Of a stretch of DNA of 64,000 nucleotides, positions 14,958 to 50,042 are shown piece after piece. The stretch is from Candidatus Methanoperedens sp. (GTDB lineage: Archaea > Halobacteriota > Methanosarcinia > Methanosarcinales > Methanoperedenaceae): assembly GCA_023249105.1 (NCBI GenBank), contig JAHFDG010000015.1, positions 1-64,000 of the forward strand, given 5' to 3'. Both the position numbers and the translations under genes were made by a program. Every line of letters begins with the position of its first letter. The first letter of the stretch is position 1. The notes under the pieces are model-generated. The model made no database searches, was not told the DNA's origin, and saw only the letters and a program-made list of their open reading frames with translations.

Positions 14958-15031
14958 TTGGACTGCACCCCAAAAAGTGGACAGGTAGTTAAGAAACATT
15001 CTTAACAAACATCTACAGAAAGGGTGCAAAT

Positions 15032-16221: not shown

Positions 16222-16260
16222 ATAGTGAAGTTTCTTAACTGGTTGTACACAAAATGGGGT

Positions 16261-19413: not shown

Positions 19414-19429
19414 TTATACCTCTATGGCG

Positions 19430-21019: not shown

Positions 21020-21114
21020 CTTACATCCCTTTAACTTTTATCAAGATTACCTCTTTCTTATTTTAATTAATCGTAAATTTCAAATTAATAGCGCAATCAC
21101 CATTTAAGTCAATA

Positions 21115-33203: not shown

Positions 33204-34298
33204 TCAAAATTCACCTTTTTTTGTTCCTTCCATTAATTTCTTTGCAAGATACCTAACATCCCTTGATTTCTCTATTTTTATCTGCTTTGCAGCAGGGCCG
33301 TCTCCTGTCTTTAAAGATGCAAAGTTAGCCTTAATTTCTTCCTTTCCCCCGATTTCTTCAATCTCAGGTTCAATGTAGCATAATAGATGTTCAATAGCTT
33401 TAGAAGCTGTTATTTCCTCGCTTTCTTTGGAATACCGGTTACAATGGTATGAACACGTCTCTCCCTCTTTTAAATAATCAACATTTGTATCCACCCTGAA
33501 GCGAGCGCCAAGACCATTAATGACTGCCTGCAATCGATTGTACTCAATTATGCTATTATTGACTTTAGGGGGCGTAACATTCTTAGCGCTCATCTTTTTT
33601 GCTTTCAATCCTATAGCTTCAAGAAGTATGGCAATCCCCAGTGAATATGGTACAGATATCAGCGTATCAAAAAGCCTGACTTCTACGGTGGGGAGATTGT
33701 TCTCCGTGAAAGGCGTGACATCCCAGTAGCGTATATTTCCGCCAAGTTTATCTTCTATTGGTTTGGGGTTGACTTTCCAAGATTCAAAAGAATCCACACT
33801 AACTCTTGGGGGCACTTTAATATGTTTGCTTCTGAACACCCTTGTGCTCATGAAACCTGTTTCATGACCTTCATAATAAGGAGAGTTCACAGTTAAAGCC
33901 ATCAACTCAGGTATGAAGTTCCTGAGCAGATTGGTCACTCTGACTTTTTCACCTGCATCCTTTACTCCAATGTGGTGATGCTCCCCAAAATTCTCATTAC
34001 TCCTGCTTGAACTTATTGGATTTACCCCCGTTGCGATAAGTCCAACTCCGCATCCTTCTGCGGTCTCGTAAGCCTTGGCTCTAAGGTTAGGCAGCCCCTT
34101 TTTTATCTGTTCAAAGTCGTCGGATATGCCGGTCACTATTTCAAGCTGCGTATCGTAGTGGTCTCGCGTGATGGTACTGCCCCAGGAACCTTTCAGGTTA
34201 TTGAGCATGACATCAACTTTACCAACAAGCTTGCCTGTATCAGGGTCAACCACCTGGATTTCCTGCTCGATGCCGTGAGTGAAGCTTGCCTGTTTCAT
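33204..34298 (-). CDS. Glutamate-cysteine-ligase family 2 (GCS2) / YbdK-type carboxylate-amine ligase
   Basis: N-terminal FTHGIEQEIQVVD and further GCS2-like blocks. Its start overlaps the stop of the upstream surface-protein gene by 4 bp. Confidence 0.7.
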   Translation of the reverse strand: MKQASFTHGIEQEIQVVDPDTGKLVGKVDVMLNNLKGSWGSTITRDHYDTQLEIVTGISDDFEQIKKGLPNLRAKAYETAEGCGVGLIATGVNPISSSRSNENFGEHHHIGVKDAGEKVRVTNLLRNFIPELMALTVNSPYYEGHETGFMSTRVFRSKHIKVPPRVSVDSFESWKVNPKPIEDKLGGNIRYWDVTPFTENNLPTVEVRLFDTLISVPYSLGIAILLEAIGLKAKKMSAKNVTPPKVNNSIIEYNRLQAVINGLGARFRVDTNVDYLKEGETCSYHCNRYSKESEEITASKAIEHLLCYIEPEIEEIGGKEEIKANFASLKTGDGPAAKQIKIEKSRDVRYLAKKLMEGTKKGEF

Positions 34299-34480
34299 TT
34301 CTTTTTCACCTTCTTTGCTGTGTCATATTTTGTTTCTACGAGGGTCTTCTGACCGCAGTGGGGGCATGTCGTTACTCCGCCTGTGAACTTGTGGCAGTTA
34401 GGACACCAATCCGTAGGTGTCATTGCCATCTCACGCTTGAGCTTGGCGCGTTTATAATAGGGTCTTATGAAAATAGCACC
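34295..34480 (-). repeat. Copy 1 of ~170-bp nucleotide-level repeat encoding the TM-proximal zinc-ribbon tail
   Basis: Shares stretches such as ttgccgcaatgcggacaa / ggcaccaatc with the other copies. Confidence 0.5.
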
Positions 34481-35392
34481 AAGAATCAGTGATAACATAA
34501 TCCCTGCAAAAACGATTCTTGTATCAATTATATTTTCTACATTTTTTGGTAAAATTGTGAATACAATTTCTTTACCCCATCTACTTTCTTTACTATCTGA
34601 GTATATTGCTTTAACATTCAAACTATGTTTTCCAGCATTCAATGGCTTATCTATTGTGTAACTATTTCCAACAATTTCCCTTTCGATTCCATCTATTCTA
34701 ATAATATACTTGATTGCCCCCTCAAAATTTGACCATCTTAAGGTTGGAGTTGTTTCCTCTATCGTTCCTTCTTTGGGATATTCAATAATTGGAACAATAG
34801 CAGAGTAAACGATATTCCTATTTCCATTAATCTCCACTTTCCAATCAGCAGAGTCGATTAGTTTTTTATTGGAAAAAGGGGCACTATCAGTCTTCCTACC
34901 TTTTAAATCGAAAATTTGAGAATTTACTTTAATATATTCACCGTCTGAAGAAAAACTAACACTGTTTCCTTCGACTTGATTCATCCATAAGAATTTACCC
35001 TTATTATCAAATAAATAGAGACTATTATAAGAAACTCTTGTATTTTTAGCTGTATCCCATTTAGAATCAACTATCACAGCACCAACATACCTGCCATTTA
35101 CTGAGATATCAATGTCTTTTATTCCCTCGGGGGCTTTTTCTTTCCAGAGAAGCATCCCAGTGTTGTTTAAAAATCGGATATAATTATTTGTAATAAAAAC
35201 AACTGAACCATCCTCTGAGGAAACTGTCTTTAAAACATCTTCATCAGACGAGTAGCTCCAAACGTATTGGAAGTTTTCTTTAGCAGATGCAACCATCAAG
35301 ATAGAATAAATGAAAGCTATGCCAACAACTATCAAAAACGCTTTGCGCACATAATTTTGATTCTTCTTAGTATAATTAATCATGTTATTCAT
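34295..35392 (-). CDS. Surface protein paralog: signal peptide, PQQ-like beta-propeller repeats, FN3/Ig-like domain, TM, cytoplasmic zinc-ribbon tail
   Basis: C-terminal RPYYKRAKLKREMAMTPTDWCPNCHKFTGGVTTCPHCGQKTLV is shared with five upstream paralogs. Confidence 0.65.
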   Translation of the reverse strand: MNNMINYTKKNQNYVRKAFLIVVGIAFIYSILMVASAKENFQYVWSYSSDEDVLKTVSSEDGSVVFITNNYIRFLNNTGMLLWKEKAPEGIKDIDISVNGRYVGAVIVDSKWDTAKNTRVSYNSLYLFDNKGKFLWMNQVEGNSVSFSSDGEYIKVNSQIFDLKGRKTDSAPFSNKKLIDSADWKVEINGNRNIVYSAIVPIIEYPKEGTIEETTPTLRWSNFEGAIKYIIRIDGIEREIVGNSYTIDKPLNAGKHSLNVKAIYSDSKESRWGKEIVFTILPKNVENIIDTRIVFAGIMLSLILGAIFIRPYYKRAKLKREMAMTPTDWCPNCHKFTGGVTTCPHCGQKTLVETKYDTAKKVKKK

Positions 35393-35575
35393 TTTTTCTT
35401 AGCCTTTTTTGATATCTCATATGTTTGAGTAACTAACGTCTCTTTGCCGCAATGCGGACAAACCTTTGCGCTACCTGTAAACTTATGGCAGTGCGGGCAC
35501 CAATCAGTGGGTGTTTGAGCCATTTCTCGTTTTAGTTTCGCCCGTTTATAATAAGGTATTGCAAATATTATAGCC
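35389..35575 (-). repeat. Copy 2 of zinc-ribbon-tail repeat
   Basis: Conserved with the other copies at DNA and protein level. Confidence 0.5.
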
Positions 35576-37689
35576 AATAGAACAAACACAATTATTGCAA
35601 CCGTCTGAAAAGTTATATTTACTGGATTCTCTGATACCTTAGGAACTGTAATGGTTCTATTTTTTGTCCATGGTCCCTGATATCCATCTGAATATGCAGC
35701 TCTAACACGCCAAGTATGATTGCCTTCGCTCAATTCAGGCGTGCTGAATTTAACACCGGTAGTTTCGTACGTTTTGTTATCAATTTGAATTATATATTTA
35801 TCTGCACCTACGTCACCCCATTCCAAATCGATGGAGCTTGACTCAGCAACCGCACTATCCGGAGGTGATTTTATGGGCAAACCAATTGCATATAAAAAAA
35901 CATTCGTTATATCGGAAAGTACAATTTTATCTCCTTTTGTAGAAATACCAACTTTTCGTATTGGTTGTTTAAAATCATTTTCCCATAACAATTTCCCTTG
36001 CTTATCCAACAGGTAAGCTTTGCCTTCATCTTTATCTTGTGATACCGAGCCTGAACCTGCCAGTATGTAATTGCCATCCATAGACATTACAATATGATAG
36101 ATATCATCTTTTGTTTTATAAGTCCATAGCATCTTTCCATTTTTATCAAGTGCTTTTATACTCGCACCAATTATAGCATTCCGGCTACTTAATCCAGCCA
36201 CAATCATATCAGTATTTTGAGATATAGCAACCGTATAAACCTCATATCCCGAAAAATCATAATTCCATAATTCATTGCCAGTTTTATCATAAAAATGTAC
36301 TAAATCTGATCCTATGCCAGCTACTACATAATTCCCATCCTTGGAGTTGATGACGGACTCGTGGGGTTCTTCAAGCGATGCAACGAGTTCTCCCTCATAA
36401 TAAATCAATTTATTTTCAAAATCATCAATTTTCTTTTCATATATTAACTCTGGAGAAACCGCATTGTGTCCTGACGAAGCAGTTGAAGTTTGCACAGGAG
36501 TATCGAGTTCGCGAGGGATACCCCTGAAATCATCAAGATAAATAACGAAATTTCCGGATGAATCTTTACCTGTGTAACTAAGCGAAAAAGAGAACAGTAC
36601 TGGTTCATCCACATCCAACTTACCATTAGTGTCCTTTTTAGACCAATCCTGCCATTTAAAATCCGAAAACATAAGAGTCGTCTTGACCCAGCCACTCGTT
36701 CTAAGGGATCTCGTTGCAGCTCTGTACGCGGCACCTTCACCGTTTTGCTCTATGATTGTTACGCTAAATTGCCAATTTCTTTTAGGTTCTGGAACATAAG
36801 ACCAGAAACTAATCCCTTTATATTTAGAAAAATCGATATCTTCTGTCTCGGTAGAAAACGAATGATAGTCTCTGAGCGTATTAAATTCAGATTTTATTTC
36901 CAGTGATGAATAACCTTCTTTAACAAAATTACTATCATGATTGGGTGTGATATCTAACTTATCTCCCGATTTTACCCCAAGTTTCCATTTTTCAGTCAGT
37001 TCTTTCGTTTCAAAACCTTCTATTAGAGATGCCGATGCATCTACCGAACTAACTGGTGTTTGTACCACACCTACACTTTCTTGAGCAATCCCTCGCAGAT
37101 CATCAAGATAAATAATGAAATCGCCCGATGAATCTTTACCAGAGTAAGTAAGTGAAAACCATATTGATACAGGTTTGTCTAAATCTAAATGACCATTATC
37201 ATCCTTTTTAGACCAATCCTGCCACTCAAAATCTGAAAACAAAAAAGTTGTTTTAACCCATCCATCCTGATCCAAGGATTTAGTTGCCCTGTATCCAGCG
37301 CCCTCACCATTTTGTTCTTTGATAGTCACTTTGAGTTTCCAATCTTTTTTTGCATCTGGGACATAAGACCAAAAACTAATCCCTTTAAATTTTGACAAAT
37401 CCATATCCAATGTTTTAATATAAAATGCATGATACTCTTCCAGTGCATTAAATTTTGATTTTAGTTCTAGCGAATATTTACCTTCTTTAACAAAATTAGA
37501 GTTTGTTGCTATACTTATATTCCCTGCGTTTGTCCAGTAGTCCCAGTTTTCAATTGATTCAAAGCCGTCTATTAAAGGGTTTGAAGTGTCTTCCTCTGCT
37601 GCAATGGATTTAGGTATGGCAGTTGTTATCAAAAGCAATGAAAAAATTAATACAGCGATTCCGTGTGATTTTCCCATTTTAATTTTCAT
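35389..37689 (-). CDS. Surface protein paralog with two N-terminal CBM-like domains, PQQ-like propeller, FN3-like domain, TM, zinc-ribbon tail
   Basis: Duplicated ~170-aa unit (DGFE..W.....FVKEG..SLE.KS.FN.L..YH....T.D.D.SK.KGISFWSYVP....W...VTI.EQNGEGA.YRA...WVKTT..FSDF.WQDWSKKD). Zinc-ribbon tail PYYKRAKLKREMAQTPTDWCPHCHKFTGSAKVCPHCGKETLV. Confidence 0.65.
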   Translation of the reverse strand: MKIKMGKSHGIAVLIFSLLLITTAIPKSIAAEEDTSNPLIDGFESIENWDYWTNAGNISIATNSNFVKEGKYSLELKSKFNALEEYHAFYIKTLDMDLSKFKGISFWSYVPDAKKDWKLKVTIKEQNGEGAGYRATKSLDQDGWVKTTFLFSDFEWQDWSKKDDNGHLDLDKPVSIWFSLTYSGKDSSGDFIIYLDDLRGIAQESVGVVQTPVSSVDASASLIEGFETKELTEKWKLGVKSGDKLDITPNHDSNFVKEGYSSLEIKSEFNTLRDYHSFSTETEDIDFSKYKGISFWSYVPEPKRNWQFSVTIIEQNGEGAAYRAATRSLRTSGWVKTTLMFSDFKWQDWSKKDTNGKLDVDEPVLFSFSLSYTGKDSSGNFVIYLDDFRGIPRELDTPVQTSTASSGHNAVSPELIYEKKIDDFENKLIYYEGELVASLEEPHESVINSKDGNYVVAGIGSDLVHFYDKTGNELWNYDFSGYEVYTVAISQNTDMIVAGLSSRNAIIGASIKALDKNGKMLWTYKTKDDIYHIVMSMDGNYILAGSGSVSQDKDEGKAYLLDKQGKLLWENDFKQPIRKVGISTKGDKIVLSDITNVFLYAIGLPIKSPPDSAVAESSSIDLEWGDVGADKYIIQIDNKTYETTGVKFSTPELSEGNHTWRVRAAYSDGYQGPWTKNRTITVPKVSENPVNITFQTVAIIVFVLLAIIFAIPYYKRAKLKREMAQTPTDWCPHCHKFTGSAKVCPHCGKETLVTQTYEISKKAKKK

Positions 37690-37870
37690 TTCTTCTTCGC
37701 CTTCTTTGATATATCATAACCTGCACTTACCAGGGTTTCTTTGCCGCAATGAGGACAAGTTTTTGCTCCGCCTGTAAATTTATGGCAATTCGGACACCAG
37801 TCGGTTGGTGTCATTGCCATTTCTCGTTTGAGCTTGGCGCGCTTGTAGTAAGGTCTTACGAAAATTGCTG
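37686..37870 (-). repeat. Copy 3 of zinc-ribbon-tail repeat
   Basis: Conserved with the other copies at DNA and protein level. Confidence 0.5.
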
Positions 37871-39299
37871 CAATTATTATTATCACAATTGCCGCGCCAA
37901 TACTTGAATAGATATTCAGCGGATCCTCTTTAGTTTCTTTAGTTATTGTAACATTTTCTTTTGTAGTAATCAAAAAAGTCTTAGTTGCCGACCAGGAACT
38001 TTCTTTCCCATCAGAATCTACGCTTTTAACAGACCATGTGTGAGTTCCGGCTGAGAGAGCCTTTAATGTGGTATACTTCGGCACTGATGTCTCATTTTCT
38101 TCATTATCAATTCTTATAATGTATTTTTTTGACGAACTCGACCCGATCCACTCAAACGTGGGTATACTGGTATTGATTACATCATTATCAGCAGGATACA
38201 TTGTTCGTATTCCTTTTCCAAAAAATGAAATTCCAGAGTCTGTTCCTAAAACAATGAAATTACCGTCGGAAGATAACGCTATGTCCTGAATATTAGGTTT
38301 AAATTCAGTTGACCAAATTTGACCTTTTTGATTGAAGACGTATGCCTTGCCATAGCTTGAAATAGCAGCAACTGTTTCTCCATCTAAAGACGGCGAAGCT
38401 CTTTGAATATTTCCCTCAATTTTTTGTTTCCATATAATATTTCCTTTTTTGTTAAGAACCACAATATTATTCCCTTCAACAGCAGCAATGAAATTTCCAT
38501 CATGTGTAATTTCAGGTATTGATAAACCGTCTTTTGCCCACAATATTTCTCCATTTTTGTTGAATAGATAGAGTTTGTCAGAGCCCATTACAAAATTACC
38601 GTTATCTGCTATGGAAACCCCATTAATGCATTGGGATTTTTCAGCTACATTCACTTTAGTAGCACATTGAGTTTCGAATTTGAATATCTCCTTACCAGAA
38701 CTATCGAATAAATACACATTCCCATCACTGGAACCAACCACAGAAAACTCGCCGTTTGATGAAATGTCCATCATATGCGTAAAGAAATACGGCTGAACAC
38801 GTACACTGTTTTCCCATATATATTTCCCTTCTTTGTAATATGCAACGCTTGGAATTTCTTTAAATTTTGTACCAGTGTAAAACTCTTGTTTTATTTTACT
38901 TGCTAAATAATATTTGCCATCAGGCGATAATGATACTCCATTAAAAGTTATCATGTCATTCCTTTCATTTTCCCAAACAAGTTTCCCGGCAGAATCCAGT
39001 AGATAAATCTTATTGTTTGAATTAGCAATAATTTTATCTCCAAAAGCGCTTATATCAACTTGAATGCCGCCCTTATTGGTCCATAGCAATTGATATTCAG
39101 TATTTGCTGTCGCTATGTTGGATAAAGAAATAAAAATTAAAAATAATGAAGCCATCCACAGCAAGCTATAATATATCTCCATGTTCCTCGTCTGTTGTTG
39201 TTCTTCCTTTCGACTGTACCCAACCACACCACCACGCTGCGAAGTGTTTCGATAAAATAAAGTAAGAAATATGCTGCTGTTGAACTGTTTTTCCTTCAT
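37686..39299 (-). CDS. Surface protein paralog (PQQ-like propeller, FN3-like, TM, zinc-ribbon tail)
   Basis: Same architecture. Tail RPYYKRAKLKREMAMTPTDWCPNCHKFTGGAKTCPHCGKETLV. Confidence 0.65.
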   Translation of the reverse strand: MKEKQFNSSIFLTLFYRNTSQRGGVVGYSRKEEQQQTRNMEIYYSLLWMASLFLIFISLSNIATANTEYQLLWTNKGGIQVDISAFGDKIIANSNNKIYLLDSAGKLVWENERNDMITFNGVSLSPDGKYYLASKIKQEFYTGTKFKEIPSVAYYKEGKYIWENSVRVQPYFFTHMMDISSNGEFSVVGSSDGNVYLFDSSGKEIFKFETQCATKVNVAEKSQCINGVSIADNGNFVMGSDKLYLFNKNGEILWAKDGLSIPEITHDGNFIAAVEGNNIVVLNKKGNIIWKQKIEGNIQRASPSLDGETVAAISSYGKAYVFNQKGQIWSTEFKPNIQDIALSSDGNFIVLGTDSGISFFGKGIRTMYPADNDVINTSIPTFEWIGSSSSKKYIIRIDNEENETSVPKYTTLKALSAGTHTWSVKSVDSDGKESSWSATKTFLITTKENVTITKETKEDPLNIYSSIGAAIVIIIIAAIFVRPYYKRAKLKREMAMTPTDWCPNCHKFTGGAKTCPHCGKETLVSAGYDISKKAKKK

Positions 39300-39334
39300 T
39301 CCTTTTTCACCTTCTTGGAGTTATCATAAATCGT

Positions 39335-42220
39335 TCATTTGCGATTCTTTCTATTTCTTGAGTTTTTTAGGCTTTTTCCTTTTACAGTATTCTTTGATGA
39401 TTCAGGTTTCACTGTTCGCTTTTTTCGTAAGGAAGATTCTCCTGTTTTACTGGTCTTTTTATTAAGAATCGCTTTAGGTTCTTCTTTTAATTCTTCTACA
39501 TCTTTTTCAGATATCAAGCCTTCAGTCTTAGGTTCAACTTTTTCCGGGATTGAAATATTATCTAATGGCGTTACAATCCCTTCTTTGTCTTTCTTTTTCA
39601 CCTTCTTAGACATATCATAACCTATACTTGCTAGAGTTTCTTTTCCGCAATGCGGACAAACTTTTGCTCCACCAGTGAATTTATGGCAATGAGGACACCA
39701 ATCCGTTGGGGTCTGAGCCATTTTTTTCTTTAATACCCATCTCTTATAAAATGGTCTGGCAATTATTCCAGCCAGGAATAAAAACAGAATAGCCCCACCT
39801 GCCGTTATTCTTGGATCAAAAGGTTTTTCCTCTACAATTTTTTTGGTGACATTCATTTCTTCAGAACTGACTATCGAAAATGTCCTTGGTGATAACCAGT
39901 CTCCTTCATTTCCAGAGAAATCTACAACTTTAACCGACCATTGATGTCTGCCGGTATTTAACGGTTCATCCAGAGTAAATTCAGAATTGGTTGTTGTAAA
40001 TGTTTCGTTATCGATTTTTAGTATATATTTAGAAGCATTAGATTTTGTCCATTTGAAGTTGGGTTTTGTATTATTCAAAATAGCGTCAGAAGATGGTGAG
40101 AGTAAGGCAACAACATTGTAGTTGGTAAATATATAAAGCTCATTATCACCTGATTTCACTGCGACATAGTTCCCATCAGCAGAAGAAACAATAGAATTTG
40201 CTGGCTTTTCGAGTTCATGGGTTTGAATCAAATCTCCTAATTTATTTACAAAATTTATATATTTATCACCAGTAATAGTTACTATTAAATCGTTATTACT
40301 AGACGAATCTATATCATCTACTGGTAATTTTTCTTTGGTATTCCCTGCTGCCAAGTAGTAATCTACAAGCTTAATAGCATTCATTTCTCTTAAAAATGTC
40401 TTGTCCCATTTTTTGTTCATATTATAATCTAACAGCATGACACCAGTACTACCGACAACGATATTATTTTCTCCTGCTACCGATTTTGCATAGCCAAATA
40501 AGTCCTTATTAAATTTTTGGACAAGCTTGCCCTGATTATCAAAAAGGTATATTCGTGATTTTTGTGCTTCATCCGATGAAAATTTATCATCTAACCCCAT
40601 TACGGATATATAGCTTCCATTCGGAGAAACAGAAACACTATCAGCTACAAAGGATAAAGAGGATTTCCACAGCAGTTTTCCATTTTTCAGAAAGTACAAA
40701 CTATTGTTAGTAATGTATATGTTTAGCCTATTAGAAATGTTTTCAACGTATAGATCTATAGTTCTTCCATCACTAATTTTCAGTATCGCCTTTTTTTTCT
40801 CATCGTCAAGTGTTATTTCAAGCCAGTTTTTATCAGTAGAGGCTCGGATGGTTTTGTTATCTTCGGTTTTAATAATTTCAGCATTTTCTATCCACTCGAG
40901 ACCAAGAGCATTTTTTAGCTTTTTTCGAATAAAATCGCTATAGATATTAAGCCTGCCATTTTCATTTTTTGCAAGGAGTACATCACTTCCATGGTCATTT
41001 AATGCCAAGTTCGCCTTAGTTTTTTCATTATTAAGTCGGATGAAAATAGAGTTATTTTCATCATAAATTTTTAATGTATTTCCACCATCAACCTTTTCGA
41101 TTTTTGCTGTTCTTACCCATGCATCTCCATAATACTGTATCAGAAATTCTATAACGCTGCTATTACCTTTTCCTGGAACGTCATCCCAACTAAACAGAAA
41201 TGATTCACTACCTTTCATTGAGACTGAATTCCATTCCAGCAACCAATTTTTGATACTTTTTATAGCAGCAACATATTCTCCATCAGCAGAAATGGAAATT
41301 TCGTCAGCCGATGTGGACATATCCCATTTAAGTTTACCATTTTTATCTAATGCAAAAATTTTATCACTGTCTGAAAAAATAATTGAATCTCCAGTTGCAG
41401 ATATCGCCACTTTACGTGGGTTCAAAGTTGAGTATTTCCATAAAATATTTCCATTTTTATCAACTAATAAAACGTTATTATTTGTTCCATAAATATTATA
41501 TGTTCCATAAACTATTGAGCCAGTGTTAGATATGTCAATATTAGATTTTATTCCAGTTATGTTAAATTTATTTATGACCTTATAATCTGACGACGATTGA
41601 TCCGGCTGTTTTATGGAAGAACTTTTTAGTATTCCTCTTAAATCGTCTATGTAAAGTATTGACGGCTCTCCGATGACCCGTTTATCATTAAAAAATTTTT
41701 CACAAGTGTAACAACCATCATTTCCTAGCCTTATATATAGTTTTAAATTTGTAATATCTTCATCTTCAGGCATTTCTAAACCGCCTTTAGAAAAAAATGG
41801 GAATGTATATTCTTTCCAGCCAGATCCATCCAGTTCACCGCCAGATACTGAATATTCTTTTCCACTAGGTAACTCAGCGTCAATTCTTAATTGCCACTGA
41901 GGGTCAGCAGATGGAACATACAACCAAAATTTAATCCCGCTATAAGCAGAAAAATCTCTTTTGGTTATTATTTTGAAATAACTACTCTTTGTTGTTGAAT
42001 ATTTAAAGCTCATTTTCATTGAGCTTGAACCTTCCTTAACGAAATCTGAACTTTTTGTTAAAGATAAATCTCCGCCTGATATTTCTGTTTTCCAATTATC
42101 GACATCCCCATTAAAACCATCTATTAATTCACTTTCTGCATGAACAGGAGCTATAAAAATAAAAGATAAAACTATGTATATTGATAAAGTTCTTAAACTA
42201 TACGAAAAATTCCATTTCAT
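39335..42220 (-). CDS. Surface protein paralog with CBM-like N-domain, propeller repeats, TM, zinc-ribbon tail plus extra basic C-terminal extension
   Basis: Tail RPFYKRWVLKKKMAQTPTDWCPHCHKFTGGAKVCPHCGKETLA, then a ~95-aa K/E-rich extension. Confidence 0.65.
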   Translation of the reverse strand: MKWNFSYSLRTLSIYIVLSFIFIAPVHAESELIDGFNGDVDNWKTEISGGDLSLTKSSDFVKEGSSSMKMSFKYSTTKSSYFKIITKRDFSAYSGIKFWLYVPSADPQWQLRIDAELPSGKEYSVSGGELDGSGWKEYTFPFFSKGGLEMPEDEDITNLKLYIRLGNDGCYTCEKFFNDKRVIGEPSILYIDDLRGILKSSSIKQPDQSSSDYKVINKFNITGIKSNIDISNTGSIVYGTYNIYGTNNNVLLVDKNGNILWKYSTLNPRKVAISATGDSIIFSDSDKIFALDKNGKLKWDMSTSADEISISADGEYVAAIKSIKNWLLEWNSVSMKGSESFLFSWDDVPGKGNSSVIEFLIQYYGDAWVRTAKIEKVDGGNTLKIYDENNSIFIRLNNEKTKANLALNDHGSDVLLAKNENGRLNIYSDFIRKKLKNALGLEWIENAEIIKTEDNKTIRASTDKNWLEITLDDEKKKAILKISDGRTIDLYVENISNRLNIYITNNSLYFLKNGKLLWKSSLSFVADSVSVSPNGSYISVMGLDDKFSSDEAQKSRIYLFDNQGKLVQKFNKDLFGYAKSVAGENNIVVGSTGVMLLDYNMNKKWDKTFLREMNAIKLVDYYLAAGNTKEKLPVDDIDSSSNNDLIVTITGDKYINFVNKLGDLIQTHELEKPANSIVSSADGNYVAVKSGDNELYIFTNYNVVALLSPSSDAILNNTKPNFKWTKSNASKYILKIDNETFTTTNSEFTLDEPLNTGRHQWSVKVVDFSGNEGDWLSPRTFSIVSSEEMNVTKKIVEEKPFDPRITAGGAILFLFLAGIIARPFYKRWVLKKKMAQTPTDWCPHCHKFTGGAKVCPHCGKETLASIGYDMSKKVKKKDKEGIVTPLDNISIPEKVEPKTEGLISEKDVEELKEEPKAILNKKTSKTGESSLRKKRTVKPESSKNTVKGKSLKNSRNRKNRK
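39600..39790 (-). repeat. Copy 4 of zinc-ribbon-tail repeat (internal to gene)
   Basis: Conserved with the other copies at DNA and protein level. Confidence 0.5.
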
Positions 42221-42405
42221 TTCTTTTTCACCTTCTTAGACCTGTCATAACTTACACTTACCAGAGTTTCCTTTCCACAATGCGGACACGTTTTCGCTCC
42301 ACCTGTGAATTTATGGCAGTTAGGGCACCAGTCGGTTGGGGTTTTTGCCATTTCACGCTTGAGTTTGGCGCGCTTGTAGTAAGGTCTAGCGAAAAATCCT
42401 GCAAC
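42217..42405 (-). repeat. Copy 5 of zinc-ribbon-tail repeat
   Basis: Conserved with the other copies at DNA and protein level. Confidence 0.5.
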
Positions 42406-43734
42406 AATAATACCGATTACGATGGCTGCAACCCACGCGTAGTTTGTTCGGGTGGGATCTGCAACTTCGACTGTCTCTGTGACTTCTTTAGGTGGTACTA
42501 TCTGGTAACCCTCTTTAGCGAACATAAGCACGCCTTTGTCAAAATCACCTACTGCAAGGAAAAATCCATCTGAAGAAATTTTGATATTTTTTGCATTGAT
42601 GCCTTTATTGATAGTCGATTTCAAATTTCCCTGTGAGTCGAAAATACTGATATTAGAATTTCCACTTAATATAGCAACTTCTCCATTTGATATAATCGAA
42701 ATATCGTTGCCATAACCCTGGTATCTGCTTATCGTATTGCCCCTTGAGTCTGTTATTTCTACGCCAGTATTTATCAAAAAAACTATATATTGTCCATTTG
42801 GTGAAACAGCCGCTCTTGCTTCTATATAATCGCCGTATTTTCGTGACCATAAGAGATTCCCCTTTGTATCAAAAACGAACGCTTCACCTTTGCCCCCTGC
42901 AACTATAATTGAACCATCGTCCGATATCGACACCCCTCCCCACAACATTTTTCCTGTTGGATAACTCCACAGTTCTTTTCCTGACTTATCAAATAGATAA
43001 ACAATAGTCCCTTCTGAGACTACTACATACTTGCCATTAGAGGATACATCCAATGAAACGAGAGCCTCTCCAGTTTTGTCCTTTGTTTTACTCCAAAGTA
43101 TAGTTCCTTTATTATCTAAAAAATCAATTTCAAATTTGTTGTCTATATATTTATATGTAACAAGATAATTACCCTCATGAGAAATCGACACGTCACCGTT
43201 ATTGTGAAGTTCTTTAAATAGTATCCGATTTCCTGCCATGCTGAGTAGACTGATTCCTTTACCAGCCTCAGCCACAGCTACTGAATTGTTAGAAATATCA
43301 ACCCCAGGCATCTGTCTTGTTTTATATTTCCATATATTATAATATTCTGTTTGAGATGATGTAAGATTCGATGAACCTGGCATATTGGTTTCTGGGAAAG
43401 TGATATACAGCCACACCATATCACTTGATTTGCTGCCCCAGATGCTGGCAATCTGGAAAATAGTATCTTTGTATTCATATACATCGTCCTCTTTTAAAAG
43501 CTTGGAATCTATTTGGTTACCTGACTCTGAAATAACCAGCAAAACTTGCTTAGGGGTAGATTTCGCATCAATAGATTGAGCTGTTATTAATAGCCCATTG
43601 CCTAAATCCCATGTTTCTCCAACTGATAAATTGCGGTCAACAAAAGCATTTGCATTGGCATTTTGAATGAATATTATAACAAATACTGTTGAAATAATCA
43701 ATGCAAGTTTTAATTTGCGACAAAAATTTTGCAT
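42217..43734 (-). CDS. Surface protein paralog with N-terminal DUF1608-like half-domain, propeller repeats, TM, zinc-ribbon tail
   Basis: The N-terminus GETWDLGNGLLITAQSIDAKSTPKQ matches the S-layer DUF1608 C-subdomain of 16261..19413. Tail RPYYKRAKLKREMAKTPTDWCPNCHKFTGGAKTCPHCGKETLV. Confidence 0.65.
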   Translation of the reverse strand: MQNFCRKLKLALIISTVFVIIFIQNANANAFVDRNLSVGETWDLGNGLLITAQSIDAKSTPKQVLLVISESGNQIDSKLLKEDDVYEYKDTIFQIASIWGSKSSDMVWLYITFPETNMPGSSNLTSSQTEYYNIWKYKTRQMPGVDISNNSVAVAEAGKGISLLSMAGNRILFKELHNNGDVSISHEGNYLVTYKYIDNKFEIDFLDNKGTILWSKTKDKTGEALVSLDVSSNGKYVVVSEGTIVYLFDKSGKELWSYPTGKMLWGGVSISDDGSIIVAGGKGEAFVFDTKGNLLWSRKYGDYIEARAAVSPNGQYIVFLINTGVEITDSRGNTISRYQGYGNDISIISNGEVAILSGNSNISIFDSQGNLKSTINKGINAKNIKISSDGFFLAVGDFDKGVLMFAKEGYQIVPPKEVTETVEVADPTRTNYAWVAAIVIGIIVAGFFARPYYKRAKLKREMAKTPTDWCPNCHKFTGGAKTCPHCGKETLVSVSYDRSKKVKKK

Positions 43735-43744
43735 TTTTCACCTG

Positions 43745-43930
43745 CTACTTTTTAGATTTAATCTGTTTCTCTTTAGTGTATTCACTGCTTGTTAAGGTGC
43801 TCAGCCCGCAATGAGGACAGGTTTCTGCCCCTCCTGTAAACTTATGACAGTGCGGGCACCAATCCGTCGCAGTTTTTTCGAGTTTTTTCTTGACTGCCCA
43901 TCTTTTATAAAATGGTCTTACAATGATTCC
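43745..43930 (-). repeat. Copy 6 of zinc-ribbon-tail repeat
   Basis: Conserved with the other copies at DNA and protein level. Confidence 0.5.
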
Positions 43931-45664
43931 AAGCAGCAGGATAAATAAAATCATACCTCCAGCCAGCACTCTTCTATCAACCACAAGCGCTTGAACGGTT
44001 TTTAAAATTGTCTTTCCTTCAGAACTTACTATAGAAAAACTTCTCGGTTGAGTCCAAGAACTTTCGCTATTCGATGAGATGGACTTGACCATCCATTCAT
44101 GTTTTCCTAAACTCAAATTTTTTACCAGCGTAAATTCCGATGTAGCCGTTTCAAAAGTTTCTTCATCGATTTTGATTAGATATTTAGAAGCTCCTTTAAC
44201 ATCGCTCCAATCAAAAGCAGGCATTGGATTATCAAGGGCTTCGCCATCCCGTGGACTGACCAAATTTATAGTAGTTGTTTCATCGCCCTTTGAATTGATC
44301 TGATTTACAGTCGAGGTACTACTTGATTTTTTAATAAGGTATATCACATCATTTGACCTCGCTGCGATATAATCTCCACCAGCAGACATAGAAATATATC
44401 GAATAGCATCATTTATTTCTAATTGCTCCGAGACTACTCCGTTATTAATGATAGCCAATTTGCCCTCCGAACCCCCTTCAGCTTCTGTTTGAGTAACAAT
44501 TACGTCTCCAGAAATTGATGATGCAAGATTGCCTGTAGATCTAAGTGTATAATATATGTTAAACTTGCCATTTTCTTCATATTCGTCAAATTCATAAATA
44601 CTTCCATCATCGAAAGTAATGGTTTCTTCATGAAGTCGAAGCAAAACGTTATGATTTTCTGTAAATATTTTTATAGCCTTGTTGTTATCGATTTTTTCGA
44701 TCTTTGCAGTTTTTACCCATTTTGCACCATAATTTTGCACTAGAAATTCTATGAGTCTGCTATTATCTTTACCTGGGATTTCGTCCCAGCTAAACAAAAA
44801 TAATTTCGAAATTCGCCATTTTTCATTAAATTCATGGTCAAAATATGCTATTTTTGTATAGCTTTTTAAAACAATTCCTTCATGAGTAATTTTTTGGATT
44901 ATTTCTGAGCCATAAAAATCTTTATCATCAAAAGTTTTTATTTTTTGGCCATTTTTGTTAAAGAGATATGATATAGATTTAACTGTTTGACCAGGAATTG
45001 CACTAGTTATCGTACTTACACTAACATAATCACCATTTGGTGAAATCGAAATATGTTGTAAGGATTCATTCTCTATGTGCTGACTCCATATGACTTGCCC
45101 TATATTATTTAAAAAATAAATGGTACCGCCAAATGGGTCAATTCCATCCGGGTGACTGTAAAACATGGCTGCTATATATTCGCCATTAGAAGATATTGAA
45201 ACCCTGTTAAAATTTAAGTAATCGTTGTTATTCAAAACATTATTGGGTTTATATTTCCATCTTAATTTCCCCGCACCATCTAGTGCATAAAGTTCAGAAT
45301 TAAATCCAAATACTGTATAATTGCCATCAAAAGAAGTATCTATATTTTTGCTATAAATTGCCATCAAATTTGTGGTGTCATAATATTTTGATGAAGCCTC
45401 ATAAGTCCATTTTTTCCGCCCATATTTATCCATCGCTACAATAGTATATTTGAAGTCTTCGTTATATTTCCCTCCTCTAAATTCATCATATACGATAGTA
45501 TTTCCATCTCCGGAAATTGCCACACTTCCATCACGATAATTTGTTTCAAACTTTCTAGCTATCACTGATTCATCTGCACTGGTTATTTGAATACTCATTA
45601 AACCCACAATAATAAAAAACAAAATCCAGCCCGTGCATCTCATCTCTTCAACCCTCCGCCGCAT
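43745..45664 (-). CDS. Surface protein paralog (propeller repeats, FN3-like, TM, zinc-ribbon tail)
   Basis: Tail RPFYKRWAVKKKLEKTATDWCPHCHKFTGGAETCPHCGLSTL. Confidence 0.65.
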   Translation of the reverse strand: MRRRVEEMRCTGWILFFIIVGLMSIQITSADESVIARKFETNYRDGSVAISGDGNTIVYDEFRGGKYNEDFKYTIVAMDKYGRKKWTYEASSKYYDTTNLMAIYSKNIDTSFDGNYTVFGFNSELYALDGAGKLRWKYKPNNVLNNNDYLNFNRVSISSNGEYIAAMFYSHPDGIDPFGGTIYFLNNIGQVIWSQHIENESLQHISISPNGDYVSVSTITSAIPGQTVKSISYLFNKNGQKIKTFDDKDFYGSEIIQKITHEGIVLKSYTKIAYFDHEFNEKWRISKLFLFSWDEIPGKDNSRLIEFLVQNYGAKWVKTAKIEKIDNNKAIKIFTENHNVLLRLHEETITFDDGSIYEFDEYEENGKFNIYYTLRSTGNLASSISGDVIVTQTEAEGGSEGKLAIINNGVVSEQLEINDAIRYISMSAGGDYIAARSNDVIYLIKKSSSTSTVNQINSKGDETTTINLVSPRDGEALDNPMPAFDWSDVKGASKYLIKIDEETFETATSEFTLVKNLSLGKHEWMVKSISSNSESSWTQPRSFSIVSSEGKTILKTVQALVVDRRVLAGGMILFILLLGIIVRPFYKRWAVKKKLEKTATDWCPHCHKFTGGAETCPHCGLSTLTSSEYTKEKQIKSKK

Positions 45665-46242
45665 GAGTTACAAAACTTATGCTGTATTTCATTTTCCGCT
45701 CCGCACCCAGGGCAGAACGTCTTCTTGTTCGAACTCACCTGCGCGCCTTGAAGAACTGCACCCTCTTCTTCCACCTTCCCCAGACTCGACCCCTGCACTA
45801 CGCTATCCGTGACCTTGCTTCCACCCACATCGTCTCCGCCCACTATCTTCTCCGCAATCGTTTGCTCATAATGGTTCGTATAGATCACTTGATGCGGCAC
45901 ATTCTCTTTCAATAAAAGGGGCTGGGGTTTCAGTTTCTTTTCTTCCAGCTTATAATCAAGATAATTAATGACGTCAACCGGGCTTCCATCATCCACCCCG
46001 AGCATCTGGCGCTGCTTCTCATCAACCTTCAGGATATTCTTGCCCACATCATGCTTTATTGCTGTTTTTACAATCGCAGTGATTACGCTGATATTGCTTC
46101 TTACAATAACAGCGTCACCGATCTCAACGCCAAGCTCTTTACGTTTTTTCTCGTCGAGCCTTACCACATTTTGAGCCACATCATAGCTTTTGGATTTTTC
46201 AACCTTGAGGGAAGCAACACGCACCATAATCGCACCATCCAA
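45640..46242 (-). CDS. Protein with two AbrB/SpoVT-like swapped-hairpin repeats, DSVVQ motif and C-terminal zinc ribbon
   Basis: VRLDEKKRKELGVEIGDAVIV and LKVDEKQRQMLGVDDGSPVDV resemble AbrB/MazE-type motifs. GGDDVGGSKVTDSVVQGSSLG follows. C-terminal CPGCG...CNSCGG. Confidence 0.5.
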   Translation of the reverse strand: MDGAIMVRVASLKVEKSKSYDVAQNVVRLDEKKRKELGVEIGDAVIVRSNISVITAIVKTAIKHDVGKNILKVDEKQRQMLGVDDGSPVDVINYLDYKLEEKKLKPQPLLLKENVPHQVIYTNHYEQTIAEKIVGGDDVGGSKVTDSVVQGSSLGKVEEEGAVLQGAQVSSNKKTFCPGCGAENEIQHKFCNSCGGGLKR

Positions 46243-46283: not shown

Positions 46284-46778
46284 ATGTTAGATGGTGCGAG
46301 TTATTTCTTTTTGCCAACTTTTTTATATTCAAGAGTACTCTTAATATCTGTGCCATTGAAAAAGCTTGCCAAATTAAGTCAAAAATCAAATGACAAATGT
46401 AACATTGCTCTCGTATGTTCCAAAGACTCCAATCTTAAAAATATTGTAGATGAGATTGCTTTAGAAATTGGTGCCTCAACTAATGATAATCAAGCCAGCT
46501 CAAAAAATTCATTATTGCTTGAAATCGCTCCTTCTGAAAAACTTGTGTTGCAGTTCGACCATTCAAATTTCGCAGACGGTTTTACTGAAAGTGTGACCAG
46601 AAATATCGGAAAAATATGGCAGCAAGAATTTGAGGTTTGTGGAGAGGGATGCCAGAAAGGCTCTAATGCTGTAAAAATATATCTTCCACCTGAGTTGTAT
46701 TCAAGAGTACAATGGTTCGTTTATCTGTTTCTTGACGGGCTGACTGATAAGAGAATCGGCAGGCGATGGATTAAATGA
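46284..46778 (+). CDS. Hypothetical protein
   Basis: 164-aa ORF with no recognisable motif. Translationally coupled to the next gene. Confidence 0.35.
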   Translation: MLDGASYFFLPTFLYSRVLLISVPLKKLAKLSQKSNDKCNIALVCSKDSNLKNIVDEIALEIGASTNDNQASSKNSLLLEIAPSEKLVLQFDHSNFADGFTESVTRNIGKIWQQEFEVCGEGCQKGSNAVKIYLPPELYSRVQWFVYLFLDGLTDKRIGRRWIK

Positions 46779-47758
46779 TAACTTTTGAGCATAATAGTCG
46801 TACTTACAATTTCAAGGTTTTTGATGCCCACAACCACATAGGCTTGGATAAGGAAGGAACAGTAAAAGATTCAGCTTATAGTGATTTAGAAAATGTATTG
46901 GGAAATATTGACAAAACTGTTCTATTCCCAGCAAACTCTCCTGTGAGCGGACCTTTCGGTATTCTTTCAAACATGAAAATACTGGATGCTACACAGGAAA
47001 GCAAAGGAAAAGTAGTTCCCTTTTATCGTTTCGATATATTCGAGGCTGAAGGATGTAAATACTGGCAAACAGGACTATGTGACGCCGCACATAGATGTTT
47101 AATTAAAAAATGTTTTAATATCGAATGTTGCTCAGATTTTGATCTTGAAAAATTTTTTATGGAAATCAAACAATCAGGCTTTTTAGGGTTGAAACTGCAT
47201 CCAAGAGCATCTGAAATAGATTACATCACGCCACAGCTTGACAGCGACATCATGCTAAAAATAATCCCTGCCGCTGGAAAAGCAGGTCTTGCAGTGACCA
47301 TGCACACCCATAATAGTAAAATGCTTGCTGAGTTTTTTAATCTTGCAAAAAAAGTATTGCCTGAACATAAGAAATTAGTTCTGATTTGCGCTCATTCAGG
47401 CGGTGGTTCAACGCAATTGGAGCGTAAAGAATCAAGAGAATATGCAGGTAAGCGATTGAATAATTGCCTCAACAGTGGGGAAGAATGGGTAAGCAGAATG
47501 CTTTTTGAAACCTCTAATGTGTTCTGGACATACCTTTTAAATGGCTTGTTGTTATGCAAGAATCTGCAAAAAACAGATAAAAGTACAGAAAATATTAAAA
47601 ATATAGTATATGGCACTGATTGGCCATTTGTGAAAGATATTACTCCTGAACAAAAGGCTACGAATATTATAAAGTCTCTTCTCTCAGGTGGATTTAACGA
47701 AAACGATATTGATATGATCATGTATTCCAATCTGGAGAATAGAATTAAAGAGCTATAG
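46775..47758 (+). CDS. Putative metal-dependent amidohydrolase (TIM-barrel, Amidohydro_2-like)
   Basis: N-terminal FKVFDAHNHIG has a DxHxH metal-binding motif. Length and spacing are consistent with amidohydrolase-2. Confidence 0.45.
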   Translation: MITFEHNSRTYNFKVFDAHNHIGLDKEGTVKDSAYSDLENVLGNIDKTVLFPANSPVSGPFGILSNMKILDATQESKGKVVPFYRFDIFEAEGCKYWQTGLCDAAHRCLIKKCFNIECCSDFDLEKFFMEIKQSGFLGLKLHPRASEIDYITPQLDSDIMLKIIPAAGKAGLAVTMHTHNSKMLAEFFNLAKKVLPEHKKLVLICAHSGGGSTQLERKESREYAGKRLNNCLNSGEEWVSRMLFETSNVFWTYLLNGLLLCKNLQKTDKSTENIKNIVYGTDWPFVKDITPEQKATNIIKSLLSGGFNENDIDMIMYSNLENRIKEL

Positions 47759-48965: not shown

Positions 48966-50042
48966 TCATTTGTTGAAAGAATACTCTTCAAACCGCTTCA
49001 GATCTTTTTCATTTATTGAAGGCTTCACACTTTCAAGCGCTTTCATCAAATCTGCCATCCCTATATCCCGTTCAATACCTGTCAGGATAGATTCTTTAAA
49101 TGGGATTACTGACGCTTTTATACATACTTCCTTAATGTCCGCGCCGCTGTAGCCTCCAGTCGCCTGCGCTAAAGCATCAAGATCAATATCCTTTGAAAGC
49201 GGTTTATCCTTCAGGTACAATTCAAACAATTTTTTCCTTGAAGCAAGGTCAGGCGGCGGTATGTATATTTTTTCACCAAACCTTCCAGGTCTCAGGATCG
49301 CAGCATCCAGTGACCAAGGCTCATTCGTAGCGCCGATGAACAATAGGTTGCTGTTATCTGAATTCATGCCGTCCATCTCGGCAAGAATCTGGGGAACCAG
49401 ACGCACCATAACAGTTGAACCTGTGTTCCTCCTTTTTGGTACCAGAGCCTCGACCTCATCAATAAAAATAACAGATTTCGAATGGCTTCTTGCCATTCTG
49501 AATAGTTCAGCGACATTTTGCTCTGCCTCGCCGACCCATTTACTCATAATATCCGAAGGCTTGATGCTAAAGAAAAAAGCATTGACTTCGCCAGCTATTG
49601 CTTTTGCAATATAGGTTTTACCTGTCCCGGGGGGACCGTATAATAGAATTCCTCCACCCGAACCTATTCCGTATTTCTTCGCCCCCTCAGGATGTTCAAA
49701 TGGATAAATTATCTTAATACGGATCTCTTCCTTAACATCCTCCAGCCCTGCAACATCATTAAAAGCCACATCGGGTTTCTTGTTTATCAGCCATTTTCCT
49801 TCCTTACTGGAAAGTTCTGCTGCGCCCCCTATTTTTTCTCGTGTTTCAAGTTCTTTTACTCTTTTCAATATTTTTTCTGCATTTGCCAAACGGATTTCTT
49901 TCATCTTTCCTTTGGATTGTTCCGCCGCCTTGAACAAACATTCTGAAGATAATATATACGAACTCTTTGCGGCGCTGAAATTTTGCTGCCGCTCAGATGC
50001 CATTGCCTCCTCCAGGTATTTATTAGCTTTTTCAAGCAACAA
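48966..50042 (-). CDS. Vps4/CdvC-like AAA+ ATPase with N-terminal MIT-like domain
   Basis: MIT-like helices MLLEKANKYLEEAMASERQQNFSAAKSSY. Walker A LLYGPPGTGKT, Walker B VIFIDEVE, SRH ATNEPWSLDAAILRPGRF. Confidence 0.85.
   Translation of the reverse strand: MLLEKANKYLEEAMASERQQNFSAAKSSYILSSECLFKAAEQSKGKMKEIRLANAEKILKRVKELETREKIGGAAELSSKEGKWLINKKPDVAFNDVAGLEDVKEEIRIKIIYPFEHPEGAKKYGIGSGGGILLYGPPGTGKTYIAKAIAGEVNAFFFSIKPSDIMSKWVGEAEQNVAELFRMARSHSKSVIFIDEVEALVPKRRNTGSTVMVRLVPQILAEMDGMNSDNSNLLFIGATNEPWSLDAAILRPGRFGEKIYIPPPDLASRKKLFELYLKDKPLSKDIDLDALAQATGGYSGADIKEVCIKASVIPFKESILTGIERDIGMADLMKALESVKPSINEKDLKRFEEYSFNK

Follow-up and report, generated by a model that had tools for sequence, protein, structure and literature searches.

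Several described systems join a conserved terminal module to a membrane-spanning segment and to variable outer domains. The sorting domains of the archaeosortase, exosortase, sortase, and rhombosortase systems (PGF-CTERM, PEP-CTERM, LPXTG, and GlyGly-CTERM) are clade-restricted C-terminal transmembrane (TM) modules carried by many paralogues with unrelated N-terminal regions; in these signals, the motif precedes the TM helix, the end is short and basic, and there is a processing enzyme. Generic terminal zinc ribbons such as Zn_ribbon_3 (PF13248), Zn_Ribbon_1 (PF13240), and DZR (PF12773) hold two CxxC knuckles at short spacing in the cytoplasm beside a TM helix, where their presumed role is protein binding. 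Clostridial RsgI anti-sigma factors and ToxR/CadC regulators use a single TM helix to connect diverse outside modules, including CBM-like ones, with a conserved domain in the cytoplasm, and integrin alpha chains, plexins/semaphorins, and LDLR-type receptors share a module order of 7-bladed propeller, Ig-like domain, single TM helix, an aromatic-aromatic-Lys-Arg juxtamembrane motif (GFFKR in integrin alpha), and a short adaptor-binding tail. To our knowledge, very little is known of how the surface proteins of archaea pass information to the inside of the cell. Here, we describe an array of six genes (34295-45664, minus strand) in a 64-kb window, which is the whole stretch of DNA analyzed (positions 1 to 64,000 of contig JAHFDG010000015.1), whose products combine different extracellular heads with one nearly constant C-terminal tail.

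The six genes are consecutive, co-oriented open reading frames that encode proteins of 639, 505, 961, 537, 766, and 365 amino acids (aa) in order of transcription, and they lie exactly where an earlier reading made from the sequence alone (the sequence-only reading) had placed six paralogues. That reading had also ascribed to every protein a TM helix and a near-invariant CxxC...CxxC tail. Indeed, all six proteins end in a TM segment followed by RP[YF]YKR..K..M..T.TDWCP[NH]CHKFTGG...CPHCG and a lysine-rich end, with 28 of 78 aligned tail columns invariant within the window. The tail is about 56 residues long and consists of a basic P-[YF]-Y-K-R stalk and a C-x2-C-x9-C-x2-C mini zinc ribbon. Exactly two hydrophobic segments are present per protein: a signal peptide with an AxA-type site at the N-terminus and a single TM segment near the C-terminus. 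The net charge within 15 residues is +4 to +6 after the TM segment versus -2 to +3 before it. This charge asymmetry implies a head outside the cell and a tail in the cytoplasm, and the array proteins are thus predicted type-I membrane proteins (N-out, C-in).

Whereas the paralogous ectodomains are 25-38% identical in their best local alignments, the tail core is 59-95% identical. At the DNA level, the tail-coding segments are 58-86% identical between paralogues, and the longest identical in-register run is 22 nucleotides (nt). Over a core of 36 codons, synonymous divergence (pS) is 0.61-0.97, compared with a null of 0.80 +/- 0.13 drawn from the codon usage of the array itself, and nonsynonymous divergence (pN) is 0.02-0.23; only 1 of the 15 window pairs falls marginally below the pS null. 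Synonymous sites are therefore saturated while amino acids are kept, which argues for protein-level purifying selection on old paralogues and not for recent gene conversion, a process that the null-calibrated synonymous divergence rules out within the window. The similarity of tail DNA pointed out in the sequence-only reading is real but modest, and amino-acid constraint explains it in full. Its description of a cytoplasmic tail under purifying selection, which is strong here, agrees with the charge pattern and with low pN (0.02-0.32) at a pS that matches the null, and its term "diversifying" suits the heads in the sense of high divergence and domain shuffling, not in the sense of positive selection. 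Two further comparisons bear on the constancy of the tail. As an internal control from the same lineages, the ribbon of the operon leader DPBB-ZnR is 46% identical outside its cysteines, while the tail ribbons are 71% identical across paralogues and lineages. The tail core is also about 83% identical to that of a cold-seep lineage whose GCS2 protein, encoded by the last gene of the operon, is only 58% identical.

A hidden Markov model (HMM) of the tail was used for an exhaustive search of 1.84 billion cluster representatives (about 15 billion proteins), a search that the sequence-only reading had proposed for the distribution of the family. The result was 26 clusters at E <= 4e-20, followed by a gap to 2e-8 where generic multi-ribbon proteins begin; the proteins of the window score E 1e-37 to 5e-39 in this library, far beyond chance. 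A word-indexed search with the same profile returned a single fragment, P0001, and the family is visible only by exhaustive HMM search. The tail is the extreme C-terminus in every member, and its conservation extends to five or more other lineages among the relatives, so it is not confined to the source genome. Relatives are labeled L001-L017 for contigs, of which L001 is a JGI contig and L017 is GCA_023144475.1, and with P-numbers for proteins. Several of them come from a marine cold seep (relatives of the L006-8, L014, and L016 type are South China Sea cold-seep contigs; PMC9357000). Across 33 tails, 12 positions are invariant (P and K-R in the stalk, then T, D-W-C, C, and C-P-H-C) and 6 are nearly so (K, T, P, K-F, and G), and the C-x2-C-x9-C-x2-C pattern is kept in all 33, with one C-x4-C variant. 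At least six or seven head subfamilies carry this tail, including the TolB/PEGA/TSP3 (thrombospondin-repeat) heads of P0023 and P0024. The closest orthologue of any head reaches only about 37% identity, which is the value for the ectodomain of P0006 in L004, the syntenic orthologue of array gene 2. A search with the ectodomains for the same heads on other anchors gave only distant WD40-like proteins that were at most 29% identical.

Neither Pfam, NCBIfam, nor PADLOC contains a model for the tail module. A scan of GTDB species representatives with tail patterns found no relatives, and a scan with GCS2 found only L002, a 49%-identical archaeal metagenome-assembled genome without the array. Nine matches on viral contigs were set aside as nonmembers, as all are generic soluble zinc ribbons (e.g., DW[LI]CP.C.RLTGNYRTCPHCG) without a TM segment or stalk. 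The tail family is well bounded and previously unmodeled, and it falls within the known theme of single-pass surface proteins with a terminal zinc ribbon; an unrelated JGI protein, P0060, likewise has the order propeller, TM helix, and ribbon.

The tail can be told apart from each of the described systems. It differs from generic terminal zinc ribbons in its C-terminal position on type-I proteins, its conserved P-Y-Y-K-R juxtamembrane stalk, the greater conservation of its non-cysteine residues, and the sharp limits of its family. It scores about 17 bits where the Pfam threshold is 27, and no curated zinc-ribbon profile matched significantly (Zn_ribbon_3 reached 16.6-17.3 bits, in three of the six proteins only). 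Unlike known sorting signals, the conserved motif follows the TM helix and belongs to a predicted folded zinc domain of about 40 residues; the tripartite layout of PGF-CTERM-type signals does not fit a motif placed after the TM helix within about 56 residues that include a folded domain. No sorting-domain model of NCBIfam or Pfam matched at E <= 0.01, and neither the window nor the related loci showed a processing enzyme of the sortase or rhomboid type. With no Pfam or NCBIfam match except the sub-threshold generic Zn_ribbon_3, the tail is not a known sorting signal. Archaeal Nop10 and other mini ribbons (the aIF2-gamma knuckle, the NrdD C-terminal ribbon, and RanBP2/NZF) are its best neighbors in sequence and fold and share the C-x2-C-x8-9-C-x2-C-G spacing and CPxCG-type knuckles, but they have neither the TM context nor the TPTDW/HKFTGG signature, and PDB sequence and Foldseek searches of the tail gave non-significant mini-ribbon neighbors only (a PDB profile E of 0.03 and a Foldseek E of at least 0.8). 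The RsgI, ToxR, and CadC proteins are similar in design without homology; unlike the array tail, their cytoplasmic domain sits at the N-terminus and works with an established partner (SigI or DNA), and we know of no sigma factors in archaea. Integrins share no sequence homology with the array proteins and have no zinc ribbon; the array proteins have no FG-GAP or integrin match in Pfam, and P[YF]YKR resembles GFFKR in composition only. The integrin-like architecture is probably convergent.

The AlphaFold model of the 537-aa protein (pLDDT, the predicted local distance difference test score, 82.9), built on a family alignment of 24 sequences, comprises a signal helix, a 7-bladed propeller, a beta-sandwich, a flexible linker, the TM helix, and the ribbon. 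Most blades have a pLDDT of at least 90, and Foldseek matched the model to 7-bladed propellers at E 1e-16 with a TM-score of about 0.72-0.77 on the target, all of them generic WD40-type propellers. The TM helix extends through RPYYKRAKLKREMA and is followed by a small ribbon at pLDDT 64-80; past the stalk helix, the AlphaFold models contain isolated beta-bridges at the same confidence.

Therefore, we hypothesize that the tail is a shared cytoplasmic docking module on a lineage-restricted set of "many heads, one tail" surface proteins, and we give this reading about an even chance of being correct. The variable head, a secreted 7-bladed propeller that usually has an Ig/FN3-like domain and sometimes extra N-terminal beta-sandwich modules, would most likely bind extracellular ligands or partners. 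On the cytoplasmic side, the TM helix runs on as a short, basic, helical stalk (P-Y-Y-K-R-A-K-L-K-R-E-M) that presents the four-cysteine ribbon T-P-T-D-W-C-P-x-C-H-K-F-T-G-G-x3-C-P-H-C-G, which would most likely dock one shared cytoplasmic partner such as a scaffold, an adaptor, or a signaling protein. All heads would thereby feed into, or be positioned by, one intracellular machinery. The non-cysteine residues of the ribbon, the exposed ones among them, are nearly constant across paralogues and lineages while the many heads change, the basic stalk would be rigid, and the constraint exceeds that on the neighboring DPBB-ZnR ribbon; together, these features make the ribbon the most likely docking surface for such a partner, with both the docking function and the partner being predictions.

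A number of points weigh against this hypothesis. The common cytoplasmic partner, which the sequence-only reading had also suggested, is still hypothetical, and the interaction is proposed from sequence. The binding of zinc is itself a prediction from four invariant cysteines and a model of moderate confidence in this region (pLDDT about 64-80), and because fold matches are non-significant, the fold of the tail gives no clue to its function. DPBB-ZnR, the only cytoplasmic protein regularly co-encoded with the array, predates the array, as judged from L013, and does not precede P0023 in L005. Structural demands may account for some of the constancy of the ribbon, as a domain of 25 residues leaves little room for variation, and conservation at the extreme C-terminus probably reflects in part a nucleotide-level constraint for translational coupling. 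Finally, the family is known solely from metagenomic contigs of one uncultured clade.

It is also conceivable that the tail is a self-association module, in which the ribbons of paralogues pair as homo- or hetero-oligomers and the surface proteins act as dimers or clusters. The arrangement of heads in the relatives is consistent with pairing. The smallest array (L016) has exactly two genes with one head of each of two types, P0025 and P0012, and in the six-gene array of L001, the best matches of the ectodomains show the same two subfamilies alternating A-B-A-B-A-B. The tails of one genome also share lineage-specific residues (GGAAIC in L001, GGAK[TV]C in the window), as would be expected if they fit each other. 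Homotypic adaptor domains common to lineage-specific paralogues are a known theme as well (EADs; PMC7159879). However, the array of the window has no A/B alternation of heads, the likeness of tails within a genome is equally explained by lineage-specific duplication, and neither structural nor co-variation evidence points to an interface between ribbons. We consider self-association unlikely.

The tail could instead serve as a handle for biogenesis, sorting, or quality control, used in insertion, localization, or extraction and turnover of the proteins and read, for example, by the co-encoded DPBB (Cdc48-N-like) protein or an AAA+ unfoldase, and would then not be a site of signaling or anchoring. 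A C-terminal module common to many paralogues is a signature of dedicated sorting systems, and the leader of the operon would be a fitting reader. This gene, DPBB-ZnR (45640-46227, minus strand), encodes a 195-aa protein without a TM segment, hence predicted to be cytoplasmic, that comprises a double-psi beta-barrel of the CDC48/VAT-N type (Pfam CDC48_N, E 1e-10), a conserved linker (DSVVQ.SSLG), and, at its C-terminus, a zinc ribbon of the generic kind (DZR/Zn_ribbon matches). It matches DPBB and VAT-N structures in the PDB at E 6e-11, has only 14 homologues in 5.8 billion proteins, and is in essence a stand-alone Cdc48/VAT N-domain, a fold that binds substrates or adaptors. It is translationally coupled to array gene 1 and co-occurs with the array in four of five lineages. 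The layout of the tail is nevertheless unlike that of known C-terminal sorting signals, for which no NCBIfam or Pfam model matches and no sortase- or rhomboid-type enzyme is seen in the locus, and DPBB-ZnR occurs without arrays (L013) and is missing before one array (L005). This role for the tail is quite unlikely. Separately, we observed that the linker motif D-S-V-[VI]-Q-[RGK]-S of DPBB-ZnR occurs twice in its distant orthologue P0056 (L013, 4609-5196) and also in an unrelated 676-aa coiled-coil/TM/DUF2341 protein of L001 (49-2079, plus strand), and it may be a shared short linear motif.

A more far-reaching scheme is one of outside-in coupling, in which interchangeable propeller/Ig-like adhesins or receptors would plug into a single scaffold or a cytoskeletal or membrane-remodeling machine and act like integrins in function, in a Methanosarcinales-like, possibly seep-dwelling and consortium-forming archaeon, while unequal crossing-over at the tails would remodel the array and shift surface specificity. 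We view this scheme in its entirety as rather improbable. The sequence-only reading had named the nearby tubulin-like proteins as a cytoskeletal component that the tail might bind, and a connection of this kind is not supported. The two genes of the Tubulin/FtsZ family (23172-24542 and 28282-29583, minus strand) lie 5-11 kb from the array, are not syntenic with the array in L001, where vWA, MoxR, and other genes are found downstream of GCS2, and are interleaved with another set of surface proteins. That set (16261-23175, minus strand) is a second case of variable heads with a constant tail: an S-layer-domain protein of 1050 aa and two CarboxypepD_reg proteins of 529 and 686 aa share a C-terminal domain of about 140 residues (46% identity between the first two). 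If any surface proteins are linked to the tubulin-like proteins, gene order would favor this set over the zinc-ribbon array.

Small CPxCG-type zinc fingers serve nucleic-acid binding and regulation in archaea, and the array proteins might accordingly be membrane-tethered regulators of the ToxR/CadC or anti-sigma/RsgI type, in which a ligand-sensing head is coupled to a stalk and ribbon that bind nucleic acid (DNA or RNA) or a transcription factor. The tail is strongly basic (a KR-rich stalk and a KKxKKK end), and its top structural neighbors, none of them significant, include the RNA- or protein-binding mini-fingers Nop10 and RanBP2/NZF. With six near-identical tails, however, six sensors would converge on a single, nonspecific output, and the terminal lysines are partly dictated by an embedded, putative ribosome-binding site. 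The tail resembles no DNA-binding ribbon significantly, and the conserved locus has no gene for a cognate regulator. Regulators of this kind are very unlikely. That the likeness of the tails is a mere by-product of recent duplication or ongoing gene conversion, without a specific function, is barely credible, for although no other part of the genes is as similar as the tail-coding DNA and one pair in L014 does fall below the null (a real tail-to-tail crossover exists), the tails of the window keep their amino acids at saturated synonymous sites, the motif persists between lineages in which the identity of the flanking enzymes falls to 58-84%, and the same 12 residues are invariant in all 33 tails.

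Recombination at the tail is documented in two of the relatives. In L014, a z3-like gene is followed by a 533-aa gene and GCS2, whereas in the related L017, a z3-like head is followed directly by GCS2, with one whole gene fewer. Up to nt 1206, L017 agrees with gene 1 of L014 at all 94 informative sites, and from nt 1215 on, it agrees with gene 2 at 38 of 39; the switch point lies inside the CPNCHKF codons. The stretch of exact identity at the switch is not long enough to have caused a k-mer mis-join of L014-like sequences. L017 and L014 are metagenomic contigs from different samples, and the true parents of L017 may be other sequences; the pair bears the mark of in-frame unequal crossing-over between tail repeats, which removed (or, in reverse, created) a gene. 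The two tails in the L014 lineage are 90% identical, with a pS of 0.46 that is below the null (p ~0.003). The tail-coding repeat thus acts as a recombination hinge. The sequence-only reading had named the tail DNA as a substrate for recombination and gene conversion; the first is borne out by this crossover in a relative, and the second, with a single marginal pair out of 15, does not apply to the window.

The heads of the array proteins vary on a common plan. Every protein has a signal peptide and a propeller, as had been described, and an Ig/FN3-like domain is present in all except the 505-aa protein, to which the sequence-only reading had extended it. PQQ_2 (PF13360) exceeds its cut-off of 27.6 bits in three of the six proteins (35.4-39.5 bits), with the highest value in the 537-aa protein, which also matches DUF5711 at 44 bits; the remaining proteins give weaker propeller and Ig-like Pfam matches. 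The consensus of a propeller blade is S.nG.yI...y.fD..G.llW. The additional CBM-like and DUF1608-like N-domains claimed earlier correspond to matches that exist as sub-threshold hints only (CBM_11, 22 bits with a cut-off of 27; PF07752, 20 bits with a cut-off of 30 over about 60 residues).

Array gene 1 (43745-45664, minus strand; tail codons 43745-43918) encodes a signal peptide, a propeller with an insert, an FN3-like domain, the TM segment, and the tail. Its 639-aa frame probably yields a product of 632 aa from the ATGA-coupled ATG at 45643, which is also the start chosen by gene callers. Gene 2 (42217-43734; tail 42217-42387) has a weak S-layer-like N-terminal segment and a propeller between the signal peptide and the TM segment with its tail. 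In gene 3 (39335-42220; tail core 39590-39757), the signal peptide is followed by a CBM11-like N-domain (sub-threshold), a propeller with an insert, an Ig-like domain (Big_13), the TM segment, the tail, and an extension. Gene 4 (37686-39299; tail 37686-37856) encodes the modeled 537-aa protein, in which an Ig/FN3-like sandwich stands between the propeller and the TM helix. Gene 5 (35389-37689; tail 35389-35559) has a signal peptide, two tandem CBM-like domains that correspond to an internal repeat of 567-570 nt (D3/D4), a propeller, an FN3-like domain, the TM segment, and the tail. Gene 6 (34295-35392; tail 34295-34465) encodes a signal peptide, a short propeller, an FN3-like domain, the TM segment, and the tail. 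We also noted that the propellers of two proteins, of 639 and 961 aa, are interrupted by a domain of about 70 residues with the motif F.W(D/N)..PG..N...I.FL.Q.YG..WV..AKIEK.D (about 44687-44805 and 41087-41205, minus strand). It has no match in Pfam and recurs directly after the signal peptide of P0023 (L005, 1950-3827) with 51% identity over 70 residues.

The 84 residues, rich in Lys, Ser, and Glu, by which gene 3 (39335-39586) runs beyond the usual KKVKKK end are another observation in their own right. Its close orthologue P0004 ends at that point, and a relic copy of the tail end, the Shine-Dalgarno sequence, and the ATGA junction follows the extension at 39295-39335 (minus strand). The extension looks like the loss of a stop codon and read-through into degraded spacer.

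Within the array, ATGA stop/start overlaps join 505/961, 537/766, and 766/365, the three that the sequence-only reading had reported, and two more lie at the flanks of the array (DPBB-ZnR/gene 1 and 365/GCS2). The last operon gene (33204-34298, minus strand) encodes a GCS2-family carboxylate-amine ligase (Pfam GCS2, E 1e-18). The final tail codons, K-V-K-K-K-stop, read AAGGTGAAAAAGAAATGA and hold both a Shine-Dalgarno-like GGTGA and the start codon (ATG) of the gene that follows. The AGGTGAAAAA element also occurs upstream of both non-overlapping starts and belongs to a 41-nt repeat family (D5), an example of which is the junction at 34294-34334 (minus strand), with recurrences at 35388, 37685, 39295, 39586, and 42216. 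The GGTGA within the tail codons probably acts as a ribosome-binding site and, together with the ATGA overlaps, couples the translation of the array genes, which are probably co-transcribed. Upstream, the locus is bounded by a divergent pair, a 164-aa protein and an Amidohydro_2 protein (46284-47758, plus strand), that is conserved in relatives.

The relatives place the array in a fixed position. L001 is syntenic, with an amidohydrolase and a small protein divergent from DPBB-ZnR, six tail genes, and GCS2. The proteins flanking the array in the window are 73-84% identical to those of L001 (GCS2 84%; the small 164-aa protein 49%), 52-66% identical to those of the seep lineage, and 41-50% identical to those of L013 (the small protein 25%). 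L006-8 have DPBB-ZnR followed by genes of 685, 521, and 536 aa and onward, L014 has its 533-aa gene and then GCS2, and L016 has DPBB-ZnR, genes of 590 and 444 aa, and GCS2. DPBB-ZnR thus precedes the array in the window, L001, L007/8, and L016; in L005, the array starts directly after the small protein. GCS2 follows every array with a visible 3' end in five lineages (relatives L001, L003, L014, L016, and L017). The arrays with visible ends all occupy the same operon slot, with two genes in L016, four in L006 + L014, and six each in the window and L001. In L013, which holds the most distant DPBB-ZnR homologue (41% identity), GCS2, DPBB-ZnR, the small protein, and the amidohydrolase are contiguous without an array. 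The array was therefore inserted, in a lineage-specific manner, into an older cluster of four genes, and L013 and L005 together show that DPBB-ZnR is not an obligate partner. The array most likely grows and shrinks by in-frame unequal crossing-over in the tail repeat.

Other origins for the locus were considered and rejected. In the MoxR-vWA-beta-propeller ternary systems, MoxR AAA+ and vWA genes are conserved beside a propeller component, and the propeller is fused to vWA (Kaur et al. 2020, PMC7159879). In L001, the genes just 3' of GCS2 (14805-17471, minus strand) do encode such a pair, a MoxR ATPase and a vWA protein (PF20030, 184 bits). They stand beside the array in L001 only and are absent from the window, and the vWA protein there has no propeller while the array propellers are extracellular; the association is probably incidental. 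The operon has no PADLOC matches, and with the neighbors in L001 not conserved, a defense system was discarded. An origin from Borgs or other mobile elements was likewise dismissed, as there are no perfect tandem repeats, no tRNA or Rfam matches, and the flanking genes are ordinary.

The rest of the window gives some indication of the host. The S-layer protein scores 355 bits against PF07752 and matches Methanosarcina MA0829 (PDB 3u2g) at E 2.6e-34, a DUF1699 protein is present, and the G+C content of the window is about 37%; from these features, the host is likely a Methanosarcinales-like archaeon. Terminal zinc ribbons are unusually common in the window. An 1105-aa protein (11640-14957, plus strand) has similar propeller blades with CARDB and Ig-like domains and ends in a generic zinc ribbon (FCPNCGKIIIKGTFCGDCG), without a signal peptide or TM segment, and the product of 9640-11496 (plus strand) has N-terminal double zinc ribbons (DZR), an SPFH/Band-7 domain, and a further C-terminal ribbon. 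An rve-family transposase of an insertion sequence (15346-16221, plus strand) lies between the gene for the 1105-aa propeller protein and the S-layer cluster. An ATPase with MIT, AAA, and Vps4_C domains (48966-50042, minus strand) reaches 260 bits with the NCBIfam CdvC model, where the cut-off is 650; the 211-aa protein encoded directly upstream (50057-50692, minus strand) has no Pfam match and could be an ESCRT-III/PspA-like partner of this Vps4-like ATPase. A fusion of an AAA ATPase with a diadenylate cyclase (DAC) domain (932-2725, plus strand) and a Schlafen AlbA_2/HATPase_c_4/winged helix-turn-helix protein near the right end of the window (59168-60571, plus strand) were also observed.

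The narrow spread of the family, 26 clusters in about 15 billion proteins, limits its general reach. Two mechanistic features are clear: translational coupling embedded in the codons of the tail and a change in copy number mediated by the tail. The locus is a clean natural example of modular gene-array evolution, in which an in-frame 3' repeat carries the putative ribosome-binding site and the start of the next gene and doubles as a crossover point. In addition, a stalk and ribbon of about 45 residues, constant on at least six kinds of heads, provides a ready bait for finding the intracellular partner. If the host is a cold-seep methane-cycling archaeon, these fast-evolving surface arrays would be candidates for the recognition of partners or viruses.

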